NCBI GenBank assembly: GCA_008632985.1
Contig: QPGO01000146.1
Span: 124,001 to 188,000, forward strand
Direction of reading: 5' to 3'
Length of the DNA stretch: 64,000 nt
DNA from: Psammoneis japonica
Taxonomy: Eukaryota
Shown here: one piece after another, positions 7,858-55,595 of the stretch
Layout of the letters: the number at the start of each line of letters is the position of its first letter
Position numbering within the stretch: the first letter of the stretch is position 1
Notes under the pieces: generated by a model
Told to the model about the DNA's origin: nothing
The model's database searches: none
The model's input: the letters and a program-made list of their open reading frames with translations, nothing else
Translations under genes and position numbers: made by a program

Positions 7858-7903
7858 TGACAGAGATCCCAATCTAAGCAGGAATGACACGCAGCCACCA
7901 ACA
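7858..7903 (-). repeat. 3' LTR (very short, TG...CA) of the copia element
   Basis: tgacagagatcccaatctaagcaggaatgacacgcagccaccaaca. It is preceded on the minus strand by a G-rich polypurine-like tract (plus strand ccccccc at 7904-7910) and matches 15851-15886. Confidence 0.7.
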
Positions 7904-9806
7904 CCCCCCCACACCCTCACCATCCACTGTGGGAGCACTGTTCTTCCAGTGAACAGTGCAGTGGCGCATCGTCACTGCCATCTAAAATGCAGGACGGGGG
8001 ATGACATCCAGCGAGGGCATCCAAATGTCGAAAGAAGAGAATGCGTGGAACGTTCTTGGTGAGTGTGTCGCTGCCAGTTCGTGGCAGCGTCAATCCTTTC
8101 CATGTGCACAAGATCTTGTTCGACCCAATCCTGCAGTGCAAAATGACGAATGTCGATGTGGCGGGTCCGTCTGGTGGGTTGGCTGGCATTGGCCATTGTC
8201 CGGGATGCATCATTGTCCTCGCACATGAGGGCAGCCTGTGTTTGCGACACGGACAGTTCATCAAGGACAGAGCAAAGGTGCAGAGCCATCTTGCCAGCAT
8301 CCAATGCAGCAACGAATTCTGCTTCCAAGGATGATGTGGATGCGGAGGGTTGCACTCGAGTCTTCCAAGCAATGGCGGCACCAGCAAGCAGGAAGGCAAT
8401 GCCAGCAATGGAGCGGCAGTGGTGGATGTCAGCAGCCCAATCAGAGTCCTTGCATCCAGTGAGTTCCATGGGAGAAGCCGCCTGTGGTGGTTGGGTGACA
8501 CGGTCATGGGGCACGGTGACTGGCGGCGGTGGGGGCACGCATGGCATGGGCTTGTCAGAGTGAGGGCGCCAGTGTGTCAGGCCAAAGTCTGGGTTTCGGT
8601 GGGCACAAAGGAGTGCATCCTTGACACCTTCACAGTGAGCGGAGCCAGGGTTGGAACCAAATTGGCTCAGCTTGGTGATTGAAAAACTCAGGTCCACATG
8701 GGTGGTGACCACAGCCCATGTCAGTTCACCAGTGGCTTTGCAATGGGAGAAGCCGTGCTGGTTTTGGCATCGCCTGGCACAGGGAGAGTCAGAGCATGGT
8801 GGGTTTCATCCGGTGCATTGAGGAATGGGTGGTTTTTCAAAAAATCTGTTTAAGGTGCAAAGTGCTGTGGAGGCGGATGTGGTCTTGGGTCTGTTCGACG
8901 TCACAACCAAGGAACAGGGTCAGTGAGCCTTGACGTTTGATCTTGCCACCAGTTGAGTTTTTGTCCACAATGTCGCAAATGACATTGCAGGTCTCATTGC
9001 TGTCGGTGAAGTCATCTGCTTGGTGAAGGAATGGCATGTCTTCTCCATCAATCTTGCTGCTGTGGATGCACAGTTCATGGGTGGCAGGAGTGAGACCAAG
9101 TTTTTTGCAGATGATTTGGTCCATGTGCTTGTTCCACAGACGTGGAGACTCTGGGTGGCCTTGGAGAGCCTTGAGCACAGGGAGCACATGGCCTTCAGGG
9201 ATGGGAGGGCAGCCAAGATGATTCATCCACCAATTTTGGTGCCACACACCCTTTTGTTCTTCAGGGCAGCCAAAGCAAAAACAGGTGAACACTCGGTTGT
9301 TCCACGGAGGCAGCGCAGGTCTCATCAAGTGTTTGGACATGGCCCGACCGAGGGCTGCCATCACATGCACCACGCACCTTCTTGGTGTGATCCAAGTCAT
9401 TTTTGACGAGGCATGACCAAACCCAATTAAACACTGCCGCACCATCCGGGGTGGGAATCGGTTTGCCAAACACCCCTTGGTCGTTGCACATGCCCAGCTG
9501 TTTGCACTCACTGTTCTCCCAATCGGGCCAGTCCTCCTGTGTCAGGAGTTTCCTGCATGCAAGCTTGTGCATCGTTGGGATGGTGGGTTCCTTCAATGAT
9601 GCTGGCTGGTGGCGCACATCCCGAATTTGATCCAGGAACAGTTGAGGGAGTCCAGTGGAGTCAAGGGAGGGAGGGAGACGTGCAGTCATGGGCAAATCGA
9701 AGTGTGATGGCTGTGGCATCCAAGCCAATGAGGTCAATGGCGGCATCCAAAGAGGCAAAATCATGAACTGGGTGGGAGTCAATGGATGTCAAACATGCTT
9801 GTTTTA

Positions 9807-10594
9807 GACACGTTCCAGGTCTGGGTGGGACCTCGTGCTGCTGAACTGTGACATCGACAGTTTTTTGAATCGTGTCGCATGTCGCGCACGTAGATTTCTA
9901 CGTGATTTTTGCGACATTTTGTGTCATCTTACGGTGCACTCATTGAGCGATCCGTCCAACAACTTTTGACATTTTTTGTTACAGCGCGATTCTACAATGT
10001 CTTAAGGGGGGTCATCCCCGCGTTTATCCTAAAATTACCGTTGCATTTGAGTGAGGTTTTTTGTAGTGTTTATTTTTGAATGCAAGAATTGTTCACAGTC
10101 ACACCCGATCGCGCACGAAAACGAGAACCATCAGCACCGCGATCGAAGCACGACGATGATGACAATCATCGATGTTTCTCAAAAACGCAGTTTGCCGTCT
10201 ACCAACTTTTCATGTGTGTACAATCTTTGACACATGACAAACATAAAATAAATGAGAGTTGGCAGACGGACCACCTCCGTCACAGACTTGTGGCTTGTTG
10301 TTTTCACCACGGTGAAGCACGGTGAAATTCAGGAAAAATCATGCAAAACACGAGCCACTCGGCCGAATTCGAGCTAAAAAAAGTGGCAACCGACCACCCT
10401 TAAGAATCGCGTGGGGCAGGTGCATTTGCAAAAACGTCAAGTGGTGTGAGGCACAATTGCACCACAAACTTGGCTGTTCATTTGATGTTGAAGACAAACA
10501 CATCCATCAATTGAATTCTCGCACTGCGGAGCTTGCACGCAGAATTCTGCGGGCCCAATGTCACACGGAGTCCCACCTGGGGCTGGAGCGTGTC
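9807..10594. mobile_element. MITE family A copy 1 (TIRs, 4-bp TSD TTTA), inserted in copia pol and carrying a nested insert
   Basis: ttta|gacacgttccaggtctgggtgggac ... gtcccacctggggctggagcgtgtc|ttta. Removing it restores the copia frame WHSELK-QACLTSID. Confidence 0.88.
10006..10399. mobile_element. Nested TTAA-flanked non-autonomous element (Kolobok-like GG termini)
   Basis: ttaa|ggggggtc ... gaccaccc|ttaa. Subtracting it makes MITE A copy 1 about 390 bp, like the other two copies. Confidence 0.65.
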
Positions 10595-53099: not shown

Positions 53100-53950
53100 T
53101 TAACAGTCAGATTCTGTTTCACCCCACCAGCCAAAACATCAGATGATGATGATTCTTCAATCCACAACCCAAGTTCGGATTCATCGCCAGACCACTCGCT
53201 GTTGTCACATGGCTTGCTTTGTCGTCATCCCTGAAGACAGCACAATCCTCTTTGGTCAATGGACTCTCAGCCCATCAGTGCTGGTTTTGAGACCAGTTTC
53301 TTTGGATTTAGAGAAGTGTCATGGGAAAGTGATGTTAGATTTGAGCAAGCACATGCTGTGGAGAGAGCCATCAAAAATGCCCTTGACTTGAGCAAGTTGA
53401 GGGAGGGGAGAGTGTCATGCACACAGGACATGACTCATCTTCTGACAATTGGTTCCCGTGGCAGTGGGTCATGGAGTGGAGCCCTGACTGCACCAGAGCC
53501 AGTTTTGAGATGGCCACCAACCATGTCATTTGCACTGCCGGCTGTCAGAAGCCTCCTTGCTGTGCCCTTTGGGGCATTGTGTGGATGCTGAGTGCCAGAC
53601 TTGCTCCTGTAAATTCTGTGCCTTGCACATTGGCAACTGGCAGGAAAAGCCGGTGGACAGAGTGAGGAATTGAGAGCAATCAAAAATTGAATGCAGCCTC
53701 AACAAAGCATTGAGATGTTTTTTTGTTTTGTCATGGTTCAACGTTGCTCAGTGTCTGTGAAGCATCTCTGGTGCTTAAGGAAAAATTCGCAGTGGTGGCT
53801 TCTTGGAGTTGGGCTGCAGCAGCCTGCCATCCGGGGTGGAACAGAGGTGCAGCAGAGCAAAACAGCAACCACACTTTCAAAGGACTTCGACGTTGCAATC
53901 ATGACAACAGTGCCATCCTCAACTGTCTCACAAGGTGTGCACTTGGATTA
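53100..53950. pseudogene. 3' fragment of the F-box-like gene (53100-53255, minus) joined to a second hypermutated 3'-half VOMI copy (53268-53950, plus)
   Basis: 53115-53255 matches 54043-54180. 53268 onward matches 43937-44600 (ISAGFETSFFGF; FEMATNHVICTAGCQKPP). Confidence 0.85.
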
Positions 53951-54025
53951 AACAGATTGCAAAAGTCATGTCAATGCACGTTTGACTTGCATTGCCGCAT
54001 TCTCTCGAGGGCTGTTCGTTTCTTT

Positions 54026-55595
54026 TTAAAAGTCAAATGCCATTTCACCCCACCAGCCAAAATCAGATGATGATGATGATTCTTCACTCCACCAGCCAAA
54101 CTCAGATTCATCGCTCGACCAATCGCTCTCATCGTGGCTTGCCTCGTCGTCCTCCCTGAAGTCGGCACAATCCTCTTCGGGCTCTGGACCAGGCACCAAA
54201 GGCTGGATTGGAAGCGCCTCTGCCTCTTGACCAGTCATCATTGTCGAAGGCTCCTTCACTAAGTTGTCATTTGTACAAAAGACAAAGCAGCGGTTCCTGC
54301 GAGCAACCACTTCGTTCGGCTGCTCAAAGCCAGCGCGTAAAAACGGCCTCAAGTCTGCAATGTCAAGGGCCTCGAGCTTGGCTCCCAAATCCACCTTTTC
54401 CTTTTCTTCCTCCTCAGACAAGGCTCCTTGGTTGTTCGCAAGAGCCTCCCACCGTGCCTGATCACGAAAATCGTCCGCGGAAACAAGCTGCCTGCGACGA
54501 TCACCTCTGTAAATGGCAACGCCCCAATCAATGAGCAGTGATCACCCAAATTTTGTGGGAAAAAAACCGTCAAATGATCCAGTGGATGAACATGTTTCAA
54601 TGATCATGTCTCTCCCTCAAACACTGTCATCCGAACAAACCCTCAGTGTCTTGCCCCCCTTTTCACATGCGAGGAATTTGGTTCTGCTGTTCGTTTTCTC
54701 TGACAACGCGATTTGGGAAAACAGCCATTAAATTTGTTGGTGAATGGACACACTTGACGGTTTTTTCTCAAATCGCGTCATCGGAGAAAACAAACAGCAG
54801 AACCAAATTCCTCGTGTGTGAAAAGGGGGGTGAGACACTGAGGGTTTGTTCGGATGACAGTGTTTGAGGGAGAGACATGATCATTGAAACACATCCATCC
54901 ACCCAATCATTCAACGGTTTTTTTCCCACAAAATGGAGGTGATCACTGCTCACAGTCAAGTCACCTCGTCCAAATTGAAAAGAATGAATTGATCCAAGTG
55001 CACATGCTCCCACCCAGGTGTGCCGTCGACACTCTTCCGATGGATCCAAACTTTGAACAAACAACAGCTTTTTCTTGGAGTGATCTTTCCCCTTTGTTGC
55101 CTCTCGAAGAGAGTTCAACTGGGGACGAGCCATGTCGGTGAAGAACAGGCTCACCGCATGATGCAGATCATCGTCTCCATCCATTTTGTGTTCATGCCGT
55201 TCTTCCACAAAAGTCAAAAAGGGAACACCAGGATTCATGCGCCGATTGACGAAGACCAGCTTGACCGATCCAGCTTCTTGTCCGTCGACAAAAATCTTGG
55301 CTCCGAATGTCCGACTGTCCTCATCCAGAACCATTTCCTCCTTCGGCACCGTCACTTGTGCCCACTCGTTCTTCAAGCGCTGTTGTCGAAAGATGCTGGA
55401 ATTGAGAATGCGTTGAAAGGTCTTGCAGGAACAACGAAGCGACCCATGATCTTTTGCGTCAGTTCTCAGCAAGACTTGCAACAGCAAATCCTCCTTTTCA
55501 AACAAGAGATTGAAACCATCATCAGGTTCTTGTTCTTCTTTCCTTCGTCGCGGACTGTTAATTTCACCGACTTTGAGTCTCTTATTACTAGCCAT
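54026..55595 (-). pseudogene. Paralog of the F-box-like gene, interrupted by a foldback element and partly hypermutated
   Basis: MASNKRLKVGE...DLLLQVLLRTDAKDHG matches the donor. SEECRRHTW vs SEEYRRHTW; RNRCFVFC vs RDHYFVFC. Confidence 0.88.
54532..54952. mobile_element. Foldback (almost entirely palindromic) insertion with ~195-bp arms
   Basis: tgagcagtgatcacc...aaacactgtcatccgaacaaaccctcagtgtc... and its reverse complement ...gacactgagggtttgttcggatgacagtgttt...ggtgatcactgctca. Absent from the paralog at 45131-45150. Confidence 0.9.

Follow-up and report, generated by a model that had tools for sequence, protein, structure and literature searches.

The window analysed here, a 64-kb stretch of the genome of the diatom Psammoneis japonica within which all footprint counts were made, contains four islands that are nearly devoid of the dinucleotide TA (positions 7984–15683, 20329–30254, 35914–38035 and 46112–55558; 29,195 bp in total). 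In order, they hold 29 TA in 7700 bp, 32 in 9926 bp, 4 in 2122 bp and 44 in 9447 bp, with observed/expected (o/e) ratios of 0.07, 0.05, 0.03 and 0.07 for TA and 0.54, 0.51, 0.27 and 0.40 for CG. Together, 109 TA are observed where about 1200 are expected (o/e 0.06), an 11-fold lower density than outside the islands, where it is 0.0411 per bp. When computed in 1-kb windows, TA o/e is 0.00–0.12 in the island cores and 0.42–0.82 in the intervening genic DNA. The longest runs without TA span 1539 bp (11826–13365) and 1488 bp (21419–22907), compared with 238 bp beyond the islands; given the outside TA density, the probability of the 1539-bp run is about 3.5e-28. CG is also depleted in the islands (o/e 0.47 versus 1.00 outside), TG and CA are enriched (1.57 and 1.78 versus 1.17 and 1.18), and the gain in TG plus CA (1807) approximates the loss of TA plus CG (1862). 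The borders are abrupt, with transitions completed within 0–350 bp. The original prediction described four near-TA-free islands with a TG/CA excess and ordinary genes between them, and took the signature to be restricted to domains; the limits recomputed here are close to the first ones, and both the sharp edges and the untouched genic paralogs described below agree with such a restriction.

All island content that could be recognised is repeated or duplicated. It comprises a degenerate Ty1/copia element, a MITE-like element with terminal inverted repeats (TIRs) in three copies, and copies of host genes (a kinase fragment, VOMI, F-box and a TPR array). The copia pol sequence (7995–11788, minus strand) retains integrase, reverse transcriptase and RNase H in several frames and matches residues 316–1396 of P0122, an intact relative. 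It is interrupted by a 790-bp element with 32-nt TIRs (9806–10595). A TIR element of about 390 bp is present at 23246–23632, where it is partly TA-depleted with 5 TA, and again at 46494–46877; the summed word depth of this second copy in sequencing run X1 is 23,000–45,000, versus about 57 for unique DNA. The partial kinase gene copy (20203–21086, minus strand) is 84% identical to a normal copy at 5430–6298 (minus strand). Two decayed tandem copies of the VOMI gene region (51498–54189, plus strand) correspond to the gene at 42656–44643 (plus strand), and the F-box copy (54103–55623, minus strand), interrupted by a 423-bp inverted-repeat element (54532–54955), corresponds to the gene at 44690–45825 (minus strand). 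The array of seven 42-aa TPR_10/TPR_12 repeats lies in an open frame of 321 aa (26329–27294, minus strand) with 8 TA remaining. All three genic originals have ordinary TA and CG contents, and those of VOMI and F-box serve as proxies for the ancestral sequence; TA o/e in the genic DNA at 43–46 kb is 0.42–0.71, and silent and intergenic sites are likewise ordinary. Like old pseudogenes, the island copies have frameshifts and indels in addition, together with 20–30% of further divergence.

Domains were sought in 71 ORFs of at least 150 aa and in the smaller island ORFs of at least 75 aa (150 out of 155, all but the five at 54231–55413). No cargo was recognised from the ORFs of island 3, no viral genes were found among the ORFs checked, and the 71 large ORFs and 150 small island ORFs yielded no non-LTR or transposase domain. 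The cargo first proposed thus stands in part: copia and host-gene copies were found, as were TIR elements, while the two non-LTR elements were not confirmed. Since unrelated cargo, host-gene copies included, is affected, the signature cannot be ascribed to the polymerase of a single element, as had been argued originally.

Direction and sequence context of the changes

The genic paralogs within the window provide the reference for polarity (43936–44579 was counted twice, once per island copy). At 148 genic TA positions, the island copies read CA 58 times, TG 51 times, TA 10 times and something else 29 times, so that 109 have changed to CA or TG. Of the 228 genic CG, 83 persist in the island copies, 63 have become CA and 56 TG. 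Conversely, just 7 of 23 island TA lie opposite a genic TG or CA. The islands are once-normal DNA that has since been mutated, by polarised A:T→G:C changes at TpA together with CpG decay, which is the direction and the pairing that the original prediction proposed.

Expressed per strand-site, the A>G frequency is 0.408 after T and 0.074, 0.112 and 0.082 after A, C and G, respectively, and the C>T frequency is 0.278 before G versus 0.08–0.10 elsewhere. The 3' base matters as well: A>G reaches 0.53 at TAC and 0.50 at TAT versus 0.28 at TAA and 0.32 at TAG (TAY 75/145 versus TAR 44/147, counts rebuilt from fractions; Fisher p 2e-4). The same preference is recorded in the 79 TA that survive in the island cores, distributed as 51 YTAR, 16 RTAR, 9 YTAY and 3 RTAY; relative to outside density, survival is 0.27, 0.058, 0.030 and 0.008 for these classes. 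A two-strand additive model with rates of about 2.4 for TAY and 0.65 for TAR predicts a value of 0.046 for the mixed classes, and 0.043 was observed. The preferred target is 5'-TAY (equivalently, 5'-RTA for T→C on the opposite strand), and both strands are affected.

At the protein level, intact copia relatives contain 3–4% tyrosine, and at the 37 tyrosine columns of P0122 the island copy has histidine 12 times, cysteine 11 times and tyrosine not once. In alignment A1, all nine invariant tyrosines are replaced in the island copia (five by histidine, four by cysteine), and in the TPR array a conserved tyrosine has become cysteine in four of the seven repeats. TA o/e is 0.58–1.00 in all 71 metagenome copia loci, none of which is TA-depleted, and nine short copia proteins show no tyrosine depletion; a second diatom example was not found among these 71 loci and nine proteins.

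The host-gene copies also show where and when the changes occurred. At the edge of island 2, three of five ancestral TA survive in the kinase copy at 20254–20328 and none of 23 from 20471 on; in the F-box copy, TA is converted as far as 55574 and retained at 55586 and 55595. In the tandem VOMI copies, TA and CG conversions are independent between copies, and where a genic TA was converted in both, the outcome is the same in 14 cases and TG versus CA in 8, which indicates that the copies were mutated in place, after duplication. Likewise, the arms of the 190-nt inverted repeat differ chiefly by CA/TG doublets. The TA of both TIRs of the 790-bp element is already converted; its interior is near-normal in TA and CG, which points to a younger insertion. 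The process must then be episodic or have ended, unless the element arrived very recently; steady mutation across a whole domain does not follow from the island pattern.

A probable targeted TpA mutator and its alternatives

We are confident that the islands record a real, targeted TpA mutator. Because TpA is self-complementary, the sequence alone does not show whether A or T is the damaged base. As judged from the footprint, the most likely cause would be the targeting of methylated repeat domains by a DNA adenine deaminase or by some equivalent damage to the T:A pair. On this view, transposons and copied host-gene fragments of ordinary composition were altered where they stood by two kinds of transition, each with its own sequence context. 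One would be the usual decay of methylated cytosine, CpG→TpG/CpA, apparently continuing in the differences between run X1 and the window. The reads of this run, which is possibly the assembly's own source sample, were assembled separately, and 16 of the 25 differences listed for island 4 are of the CpG↔TpG/CpA type, a hint of methylation; two of the 25 involve TA. The other process, faster and nearly complete, would change A:T to G:C at TpA on each strand independently, with 5'-TAY preferred. The enzyme responsible would be aimed at a compartment of repeats that are methylated and presumably silent; a DNA adenine deaminase would convert A to inosine, which is read as G. The process may be of the same kind as that active in mutation-accumulation lines of Bigelowiella natans (Mettrop et al., bioRxiv 10.64898/2026.01.13.699255). 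As a whole, this account, in which CpG decay and an enzyme-driven TpA change, likeliest by a DNA adenine deaminase, rewrote the islands in a methylated, silent compartment, is somewhat better than an even bet; adenine deamination specifically, as the cause of TpA loss, is offered tentatively.

It is possible, if rather unlikely, that the target is not a standing chromatin domain and that mutation is instead directed by repeat homology in RIP-like bursts, triggered by duplication or insertion and spreading slightly into the flanks. The repeated or duplicated nature of all recognisable island content is compatible with this, as are the post-duplication mutation of the tandem VOMI copies, the young TA-normal insertion in island 1, which is expected between bursts, and the confinement of mutation to some lines in B. 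natans. However, classical RIP changes both partners, and the kinase, VOMI and F-box originals retain ordinary TA, silent and intergenic sites included. Moreover, at an identity threshold of at least 85%, island 4 is today largely single-copy (X1 word depth about 60–72), although it may once have been repeated.

Somewhat more doubtful is a lesion on T, in which a thymine dioxygenase of the TET/JBP type would mark the T of 5'-RTA in heterochromatin as 5hmU and then 5fU, leading to T→C. 5-Formyluracil mispairs with G, and T→C at RTA fits every count equally well as A→G at TAY; we know of no thymine modification in diatoms. In dinoflagellates, 5hmU made by an enzyme of this type is reported to silence transposons (PMC11572971). 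Early work cited in PMC11071213 placed 5hmU preferentially in TA and TC contexts, but the same article reports that Breviolum showed no preference of this kind, and TC is unaffected in the islands, being retained at 0.70 like other dinucleotides.

Error-prone repair, a candidate of the original prediction, has become very improbable. Here, deamination of 5mC would recruit patch repair of the pol-eta type, with A→G errors nearby, and CpG decay and TA loss do share the same islands. The hotspot of pol-eta is WA, yet A>G at AA is not raised (0.074 versus 0.408 at TA). In the F-box copy, moreover, just 5 of 30 TA survive, compared with 41 of 59 CG, so that the extent of TA loss is not tied to that of CpG deamination; in the younger copies TA loss outpaces CpG loss, with -ln(kept) ratios of about 3 to 5.

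Slimmer still is the chance, raised at the outset as a possible refutation, that a modified base in heterochromatin was misread during sequencing or base calling. The assembly platform and the library type of X1 are unrecorded. Nevertheless, contigs assembled from X1 alone reproduce the TA-free island sequence (971 nt with one difference; 1069 nt with four) at a depth in 31-letter words of about 55–70 across genes and island alike, which requires accurate reads and is strong, if not final, evidence. In addition, the frameshifts, indels and other divergence that accompany TA loss in the island copies point away from an artefact, and a base misread by every polymerase would presumably become a mutation at the next replication.

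To our knowledge, ADARs are confined to animals. ADAR-like A-to-I editing of transposon RNA fixed by reverse transcription, with which the passage of copia through RNA and the tendency of ADARs toward a 5' U (Discussion of Mettrop et al.) would agree, and elements natively poor in TA, another refutation first envisaged, can be rejected for the window on strand symmetry and non-retroelement targets, with a negligible residual probability: the copia sense strand shows T→C (Tyr→His, 12) as often as A→G (Tyr→Cys, 11), AA is spared, host-gene copies and DNA-type TIR elements are affected too, and the copia relatives are TA-normal.

Comparison with known systems

RIP of ascomycete fungi is a premeiotic process, dependent on RID/DIM-2, that changes C:G to T:A, mainly CpA to TpA, and so enriches TpA. 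The islands resemble its products in that dinucleotide-specific transitions have irreversibly inactivated repeated or mobile DNA and left compositional islands beside intact genes. The direction is the reverse, however, since RIP creates the TpA that is destroyed here, and RIP mutates both duplicates, whereas the genic copies at 5430–6298 and 42656–45825 keep their TA and CG. Diatoms have a methyltransferase related to RID, DNMT4, described as being of unknown function, and transposon methylation is documented in them (PMC9998398 for both). Deamination of 5mC accounts for the CG→TG/CA half of the island signature and for the CpG-type changes that separate X1 from the window, but is incapable of removing TA.

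Deaminases of the TadA/ADAT2 family convert A to I, and I is read as G. In tRNA they naturally act on A34, which comes after U33 (bacterial tRNA-Arg has the sequence U-A-C-G), a context that matches the 5'-TA(Y) preference of the islands. Amphioxus ADAT2 is reported to deaminate DNA (PMC10354150), although no member of the family is known to have an established role in DNA genome defence. Iyer et al. 2011 (PMC3239186) also list deaminases that are restricted to stramenopiles and carry fused SAM and tudor domains; these would be candidates of equal standing. The footprints of APOBEC and ADAR in animal retroelements are similarly fixed hypermutated copies, traces of deaminase defence, but they affect one strand, depend on reverse transcription or on RNA, and follow different motifs (PMC4866542); the islands are altered on both strands, in non-retroelement DNA and at TA.

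The closest parallel comes from B. natans, where TpA is hypermutated in integrated viral DNA and in DNA resembling transposons. The original prediction knew of no description of such a process; this holds for diatoms, for which our literature search found no report of TpA→TpG/CpA hypermutation, but the 2026 preprint of Mettrop et al. describes the same signature. Of the 231 de novo mutations in two silent viral insertions of that alga, 230 were GC-biased changes (A→G or T→C), and each of the 230 lay at TpA; low-TpA coding sequences were enriched in RT and DDE domains. The rate in cultured lines was about 1e-7 to 1e-6 per site per generation, with mutation in only some lines, and the authors proposed an ADAT2-like deaminase as the candidate enzyme. 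The preprint's text never mentions CpG, the decay of which coincides with TA loss here, nor does its main text report the +1 pyrimidine preference measured in the islands. B. natans is a chlorarachniophyte (rhizarian), unlike the stramenopile studied here, and the activity is experimental there and read from a footprint here. Its NCLDV region has a Rho(TpA) of 0.45, as opposed to near saturation in the islands (TA o/e 0.03–0.07). The targets in the window are transposon islands with host-gene duplicates, and no viral genes were seen among the ORFs checked; the duplicates make the target class wider than foreign or mobile DNA. The two systems nevertheless share a bias toward GC, in which TpA becomes TpG or CpA depending on the strand, clustered 1-kb windows low in TpA and high in CpA plus TpG, confinement to particular regions, and mobile or foreign DNA as the target, silent in B. 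natans and comprising copia and TIR elements here. So far, TpA-erasing mutation had been reported in one unrelated alga only, to which the islands add a footprint in a diatom.

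Composition and read support of the TA-depleted islands

The original prediction described four near-TA-free islands separated by genes with ordinary TA content, and this description is confirmed. Islands 1 to 4 (7984–15683, 20329–30254, 35914–38035 and 46112–55558) together cover 29,195 bp and contain 109 TA dinucleotides where 1200 are expected. In 1-kb windows the observed/expected (o/e) ratio of TA is 0.00–0.12 in the island cores versus 0.42–0.82 in the intervening genes, and that of CG is 0.47 in the islands versus 1.00 outside them. Within the islands TG and CA are over-represented (o/e 1.57 and 1.78, respectively), and the 1862 TA and CG lost are approximately balanced by the 1807 TG and CA gained. 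TA-free runs extend up to 1539 bp, compared with a maximum of 238 bp outside; given the outside TA density, the longest run has a probability of about 3.5e-28. The stop trinucleotides of the islands number 53 TAA, 32 TAG and 693 TGA, and because TGA is almost the only stop in TA-free DNA, long overlapping spurious ORFs arise in several frames of all four islands. The pseudo-proteins read from such DNA lack tyrosine and are rich in cysteine and histidine; together with the spurious ORFs, they can misguide gene callers and annotation.

Two public sequencing runs, X1 and X2, were matched to the window. X1, whose library type is not on record and which is possibly the source sample of the assembly, contains 0.75 of the sampled 31-letter words of island 4. 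Contigs built from X1 reads alone have a word depth of about 55–70 over genes and island alike and reproduce the TA-free island with 1 difference in 971 nt and 4 differences in 1069 nt. Since words of 31 letters at such depth require accurate reads, a sequencing or long-read base-calling artefact, which the original prediction had named as a potential refutation, is unlikely. The 25 differences between X1 and the window in island 4 (from the best-supported 40 of 640) include 16 exchanges between CpG and TpG/CpA and 2 that involve TA, a spectrum that fits continuing decay at methylated CpG alongside a TpA process left with no further targets. X2, of a kind not on record and labelled 'DNA?', covers chiefly the genic parts, with almost no cover at 46.7–53.3 kb, where absence of cover is no evidence either way. 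One X2 contig omits 42628–42825 in the manner of a spliced transcript, and X2 may be an RNA library from the same sample.

Contents of the islands and their neighbourhood

Island 1 carries, in minus-strand orientation, a degenerate Ty1/copia element recognized by its Pfam domains and relatives. Inserted within this hypermutated copia is a 790-bp element (9806–10595) that has terminal inverted repeats (TIRs) of 32 nt and TTTA/TTTA-like flanks; it is related to a MITE-like TIR element of approximately 390 bp found in islands 2 (23246–23632) and 4 (46494–46877), and in island 1 at 9806–9904. Judging by the summed X1 word depth of 23,000–45,000 over 46.0–47.3 kb, versus about 57 in unique DNA, the ~390-bp family probably comprises hundreds of copies. 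Island 2 contains a partial copy of the neighbouring kinase gene and an array of seven TPR_10/TPR_12 repeats (26329–27294, minus strand) in a 321-aa ORF that is still open; the conserved Tyr has become Cys in four of the seven repeats, so that the array is caught halfway through conversion.

In island 4 the VOMI gene region is present as a tandem pair of copies, and a copy of the F-box gene is interrupted by a 423-bp element (54532–54955) built from two inverted arms of 190 nt with 89% complementarity. One X1 and one X2 contig bridge this interval directly, so copies without the element exist. The block 48500–51200 is G-rich and strand-skewed (GC skew up to 0.45, CA o/e up to 2.7) and has no family match; several X1 contigs omit 74–231 bases within it, suggesting internal repeats. 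Three paralogous ORFs with DNA 72–78% identical and no Pfam family (38261–39745, 40584–41842 and 55942–57360) adjoin islands 3 and 4, and a decayed fragment of the same family lies in island 4 at 51153–51312. The gene for ribosomal protein eS1 (60411–61190) has diatoms as its nearest named relatives (Thalassionema, Helicotheca, Cyclophora); the closest match is 92% identical, and no identical protein is present among the matches.

The Pfam search, which covered 71 ORFs of at least 150 aa and 150 of the 155 smaller island ORFs of at least 75 aa (five small ORFs at 54231–55413 were omitted), found only copia, TPR, VOMI and F-box, with no family for island 3 or for much of islands 2 and 4. Two non-LTR elements that had been proposed as island cargo were not confirmed by this search of the island ORFs. 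The Rfam search and the tRNA scan each gave 0 matches.

Polarity, sequence context and timing of the conversions

Untouched genic copies of the kinase (5430–6298) and of VOMI and F-box (42656–45825) served as the ancestral proxy for the island copies; these originals are unchanged, including their silent and intergenic sites. The 148 ancestral TA (among which 43936–44579 is entered twice, once per island copy) have become CA in 58 cases, TG in 51 and other dinucleotides in 29, with 10 kept as TA. The reverse direction is rare, a genic TG or CA standing opposite just 7 of 23 island TA. Among 228 ancestral CG, 83 are kept, 63 are CA and 56 are TG. The copia element provides a second line of polarized evidence. 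Intact relatives contain 3–4% Tyr, and at the 37 Tyr columns of one of them, P0122, the island copy has His 12 times, Cys 11 times and Tyr 0 times; the nine Tyr that are invariant in the family alignment have all been replaced (His 5, Cys 4). These replacements are exactly TAY to CAY and TAY to TGY. At all 71 metagenome loci with copia relatives the TA o/e is 0.58–1.00, the lowest 1-kb value being 0.31. TA-normal relatives and lost Tyr columns together indicate that the island elements are not natively TA-free, and a natively TA-free consensus, which would have overturned the original prediction, thus fails as an explanation. No hypermutated copy occurs among the 71 loci, and nine short copia relatives (Tyr 2.5–5%) are not Tyr-depleted; a search of this type favours intact copies and says little on how widespread the process is.

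With strands collapsed, a preceding T gives an A>G fraction of 0.408, compared with 0.074–0.112 for a preceding A, C or G, and the C>T fraction at CpG is 0.278, compared with 0.08–0.10 elsewhere. The following base also counts: A>G reaches 0.53 in TAC and 0.50 in TAT versus 0.28 in TAA and 0.32 in TAG (TAY versus TAR, p 2e-4, on counts reconstructed from the fractions). Independently of the paralog comparison, the survivors of the island cores back the TAY preference: the 79 surviving TA comprise 51 YTAR, 16 RTAR, 9 YTAY and 3 RTAY, and survival relative to the outside density is 0.27, 0.058, 0.030 and 0.008, respectively. A per-strand model with independent hits, at rates of about 2.4 (TAY) and 0.65 (TAR) in units of –ln survival, predicts a survival of 0.046 for the mixed classes, and the observed value is 0.043. 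The fit of this additive model indicates that the event is a single-strand hit at 5'-TAY, either strand being equally likely. The outcome shows no strand asymmetry, either in the dinucleotides or in the replacement of Tyr by His or Cys, and the overall counts of CA and TG led us to reject the idea that the choice between them reflects asymmetric transcription or replication. A strand bias cannot be read from mismatches between the inverted-repeat arms, since conversions that match in both arms leave no mismatch.

In the tandem copies of island 4, genic-TA sites converted in both have the same outcome in 14 cases and differ (TG versus CA) in 8, which points to mostly independent conversion after duplication. 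CA/TG doublets are likewise the main differences between the 190-nt inverted arms and among the copies of the TIR elements; these comparisons show that conversion took place in situ. The island edges are sharp, to 100 bp or less. The kinase-fragment copy keeps 3 of 5 ancestral TA in 20254–20328 and 0 of 23 from 20471 on, and in the F-box copy TA is converted up to 55574 and retained at 55586 and 55595; at two left island edges there is a narrow zone about 300 bp wide. TA was lost faster than CpG, as seen from retention in the F-box copy (TA 5/30 versus CG 41/59) and in the kinase copy (TA 3/28 versus CG 28/58). The interior of the 790-bp element is near-normal in both TA and CG, and the TA of both its TIRs are converted, so that either the insertion is very recent, or the process works episodically or has come to an end.

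Mechanism and relation to known mutators

The data establish a strand-symmetric, TAY-specific A:T to G:C process, restricted to islands of repeats in which CpG is also decaying. The original interpretation is partly supported: it stands with respect to polarized TpA change accompanied by CpG decay, whereas polymerase eta is disfavoured and the non-LTR cargo is not confirmed. The cause would be an enzyme targeted to a compartment of methylated, silent DNA, for which a DNA adenine deaminase (A to I, read as G) is the simplest candidate. TadA/ADAT enzymes naturally deaminate A following U. Amphioxus ADAT2 is reported to act on DNA (PMC10354150), and stramenopiles are described as having their own deaminase-SAM-tudor proteins (PMC3239186). 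We tentatively suggest, while considering it rather less than an even prospect, that a DNA adenine deaminase guided by chromatin is common to diatoms and chlorarachniophytes. It would recognize 5'-TAY, on whichever strand, in DNA that is methylated and silenced, and would irreversibly erase transposons, viral integrations and stray duplicates of genes. Such a shared enzyme, possibly ancient in SAR lineages, would do with adenine what RIP and APOBEC do with cytosine, and would amount to a natural DNA base editor for adenine.

One rival to an adenine deaminase is a thymine modification (5hmU/5fU) at RTA: as TA is self-complementary, the same counts can be read as T to C at 5'-RTA, and the damaged base is indistinguishable by sequence. 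Another possibility is that conversion occurs in homology-triggered, RIP-like bursts. Polymerase eta repair, an earlier candidate for the TA loss, is argued against by the comparison of island and genic copies, in which AA is not a target of A>G, and by the independence of TA loss from CpG. RNA editing is argued against by the equal effect on both strands and by the presence of targets other than retroelements.

Known genome-defence mutators such as RIP and APOBEC deaminate cytosine. Fungal RIP differs from the process in the window in both testable defining features, since its direction of change is the opposite and since one duplication partner, the genic original, is spared here. The closest known case is the TpA to TpG/CpA hypermutation of Bigelowiella natans (Mettrop et al., bioRxiv 10.64898/2026.01.13.699255). 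Of 231 mutations that its mutation-accumulation lines gained in two integrated viral regions, 230 are reported as A to G or T to C, the GC-biased mutations of both regions all lying at TpA, with rates approximately 1000-fold over background in some lines only; low-TpA coding sequences are described as enriched in RT and DDE domains. The available text of the preprint makes no mention of diatoms, CpG or flanking bases. Our literature search found no description of TpA hypermutation in diatoms.

The window is thus a diatom case of a kind of process described only in 2026, a directed TpA A:T to G:C mutator so far reported in one preprint on one rhizarian alga. Novel features of the diatom case are the preference for TAY, per-strand kinetics that are additive, the spatial overlap with CpG decay, the inclusion of host-gene duplicates among the targets, and edges sharp to 100 bp or less. 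The near-saturated footprint in a diatom implies that the process is not peculiar to Bigelowiella; it adds ordinary islands of transposons and duplicated host genes to the range of targets, and ties the process spatially to a CpG-decaying, presumably methylated compartment. The TAY motif and the additive per-strand rate model are constraints that any candidate enzyme must meet, and the genes common to the lineages that carry the footprint offer a comparative path to that enzyme.
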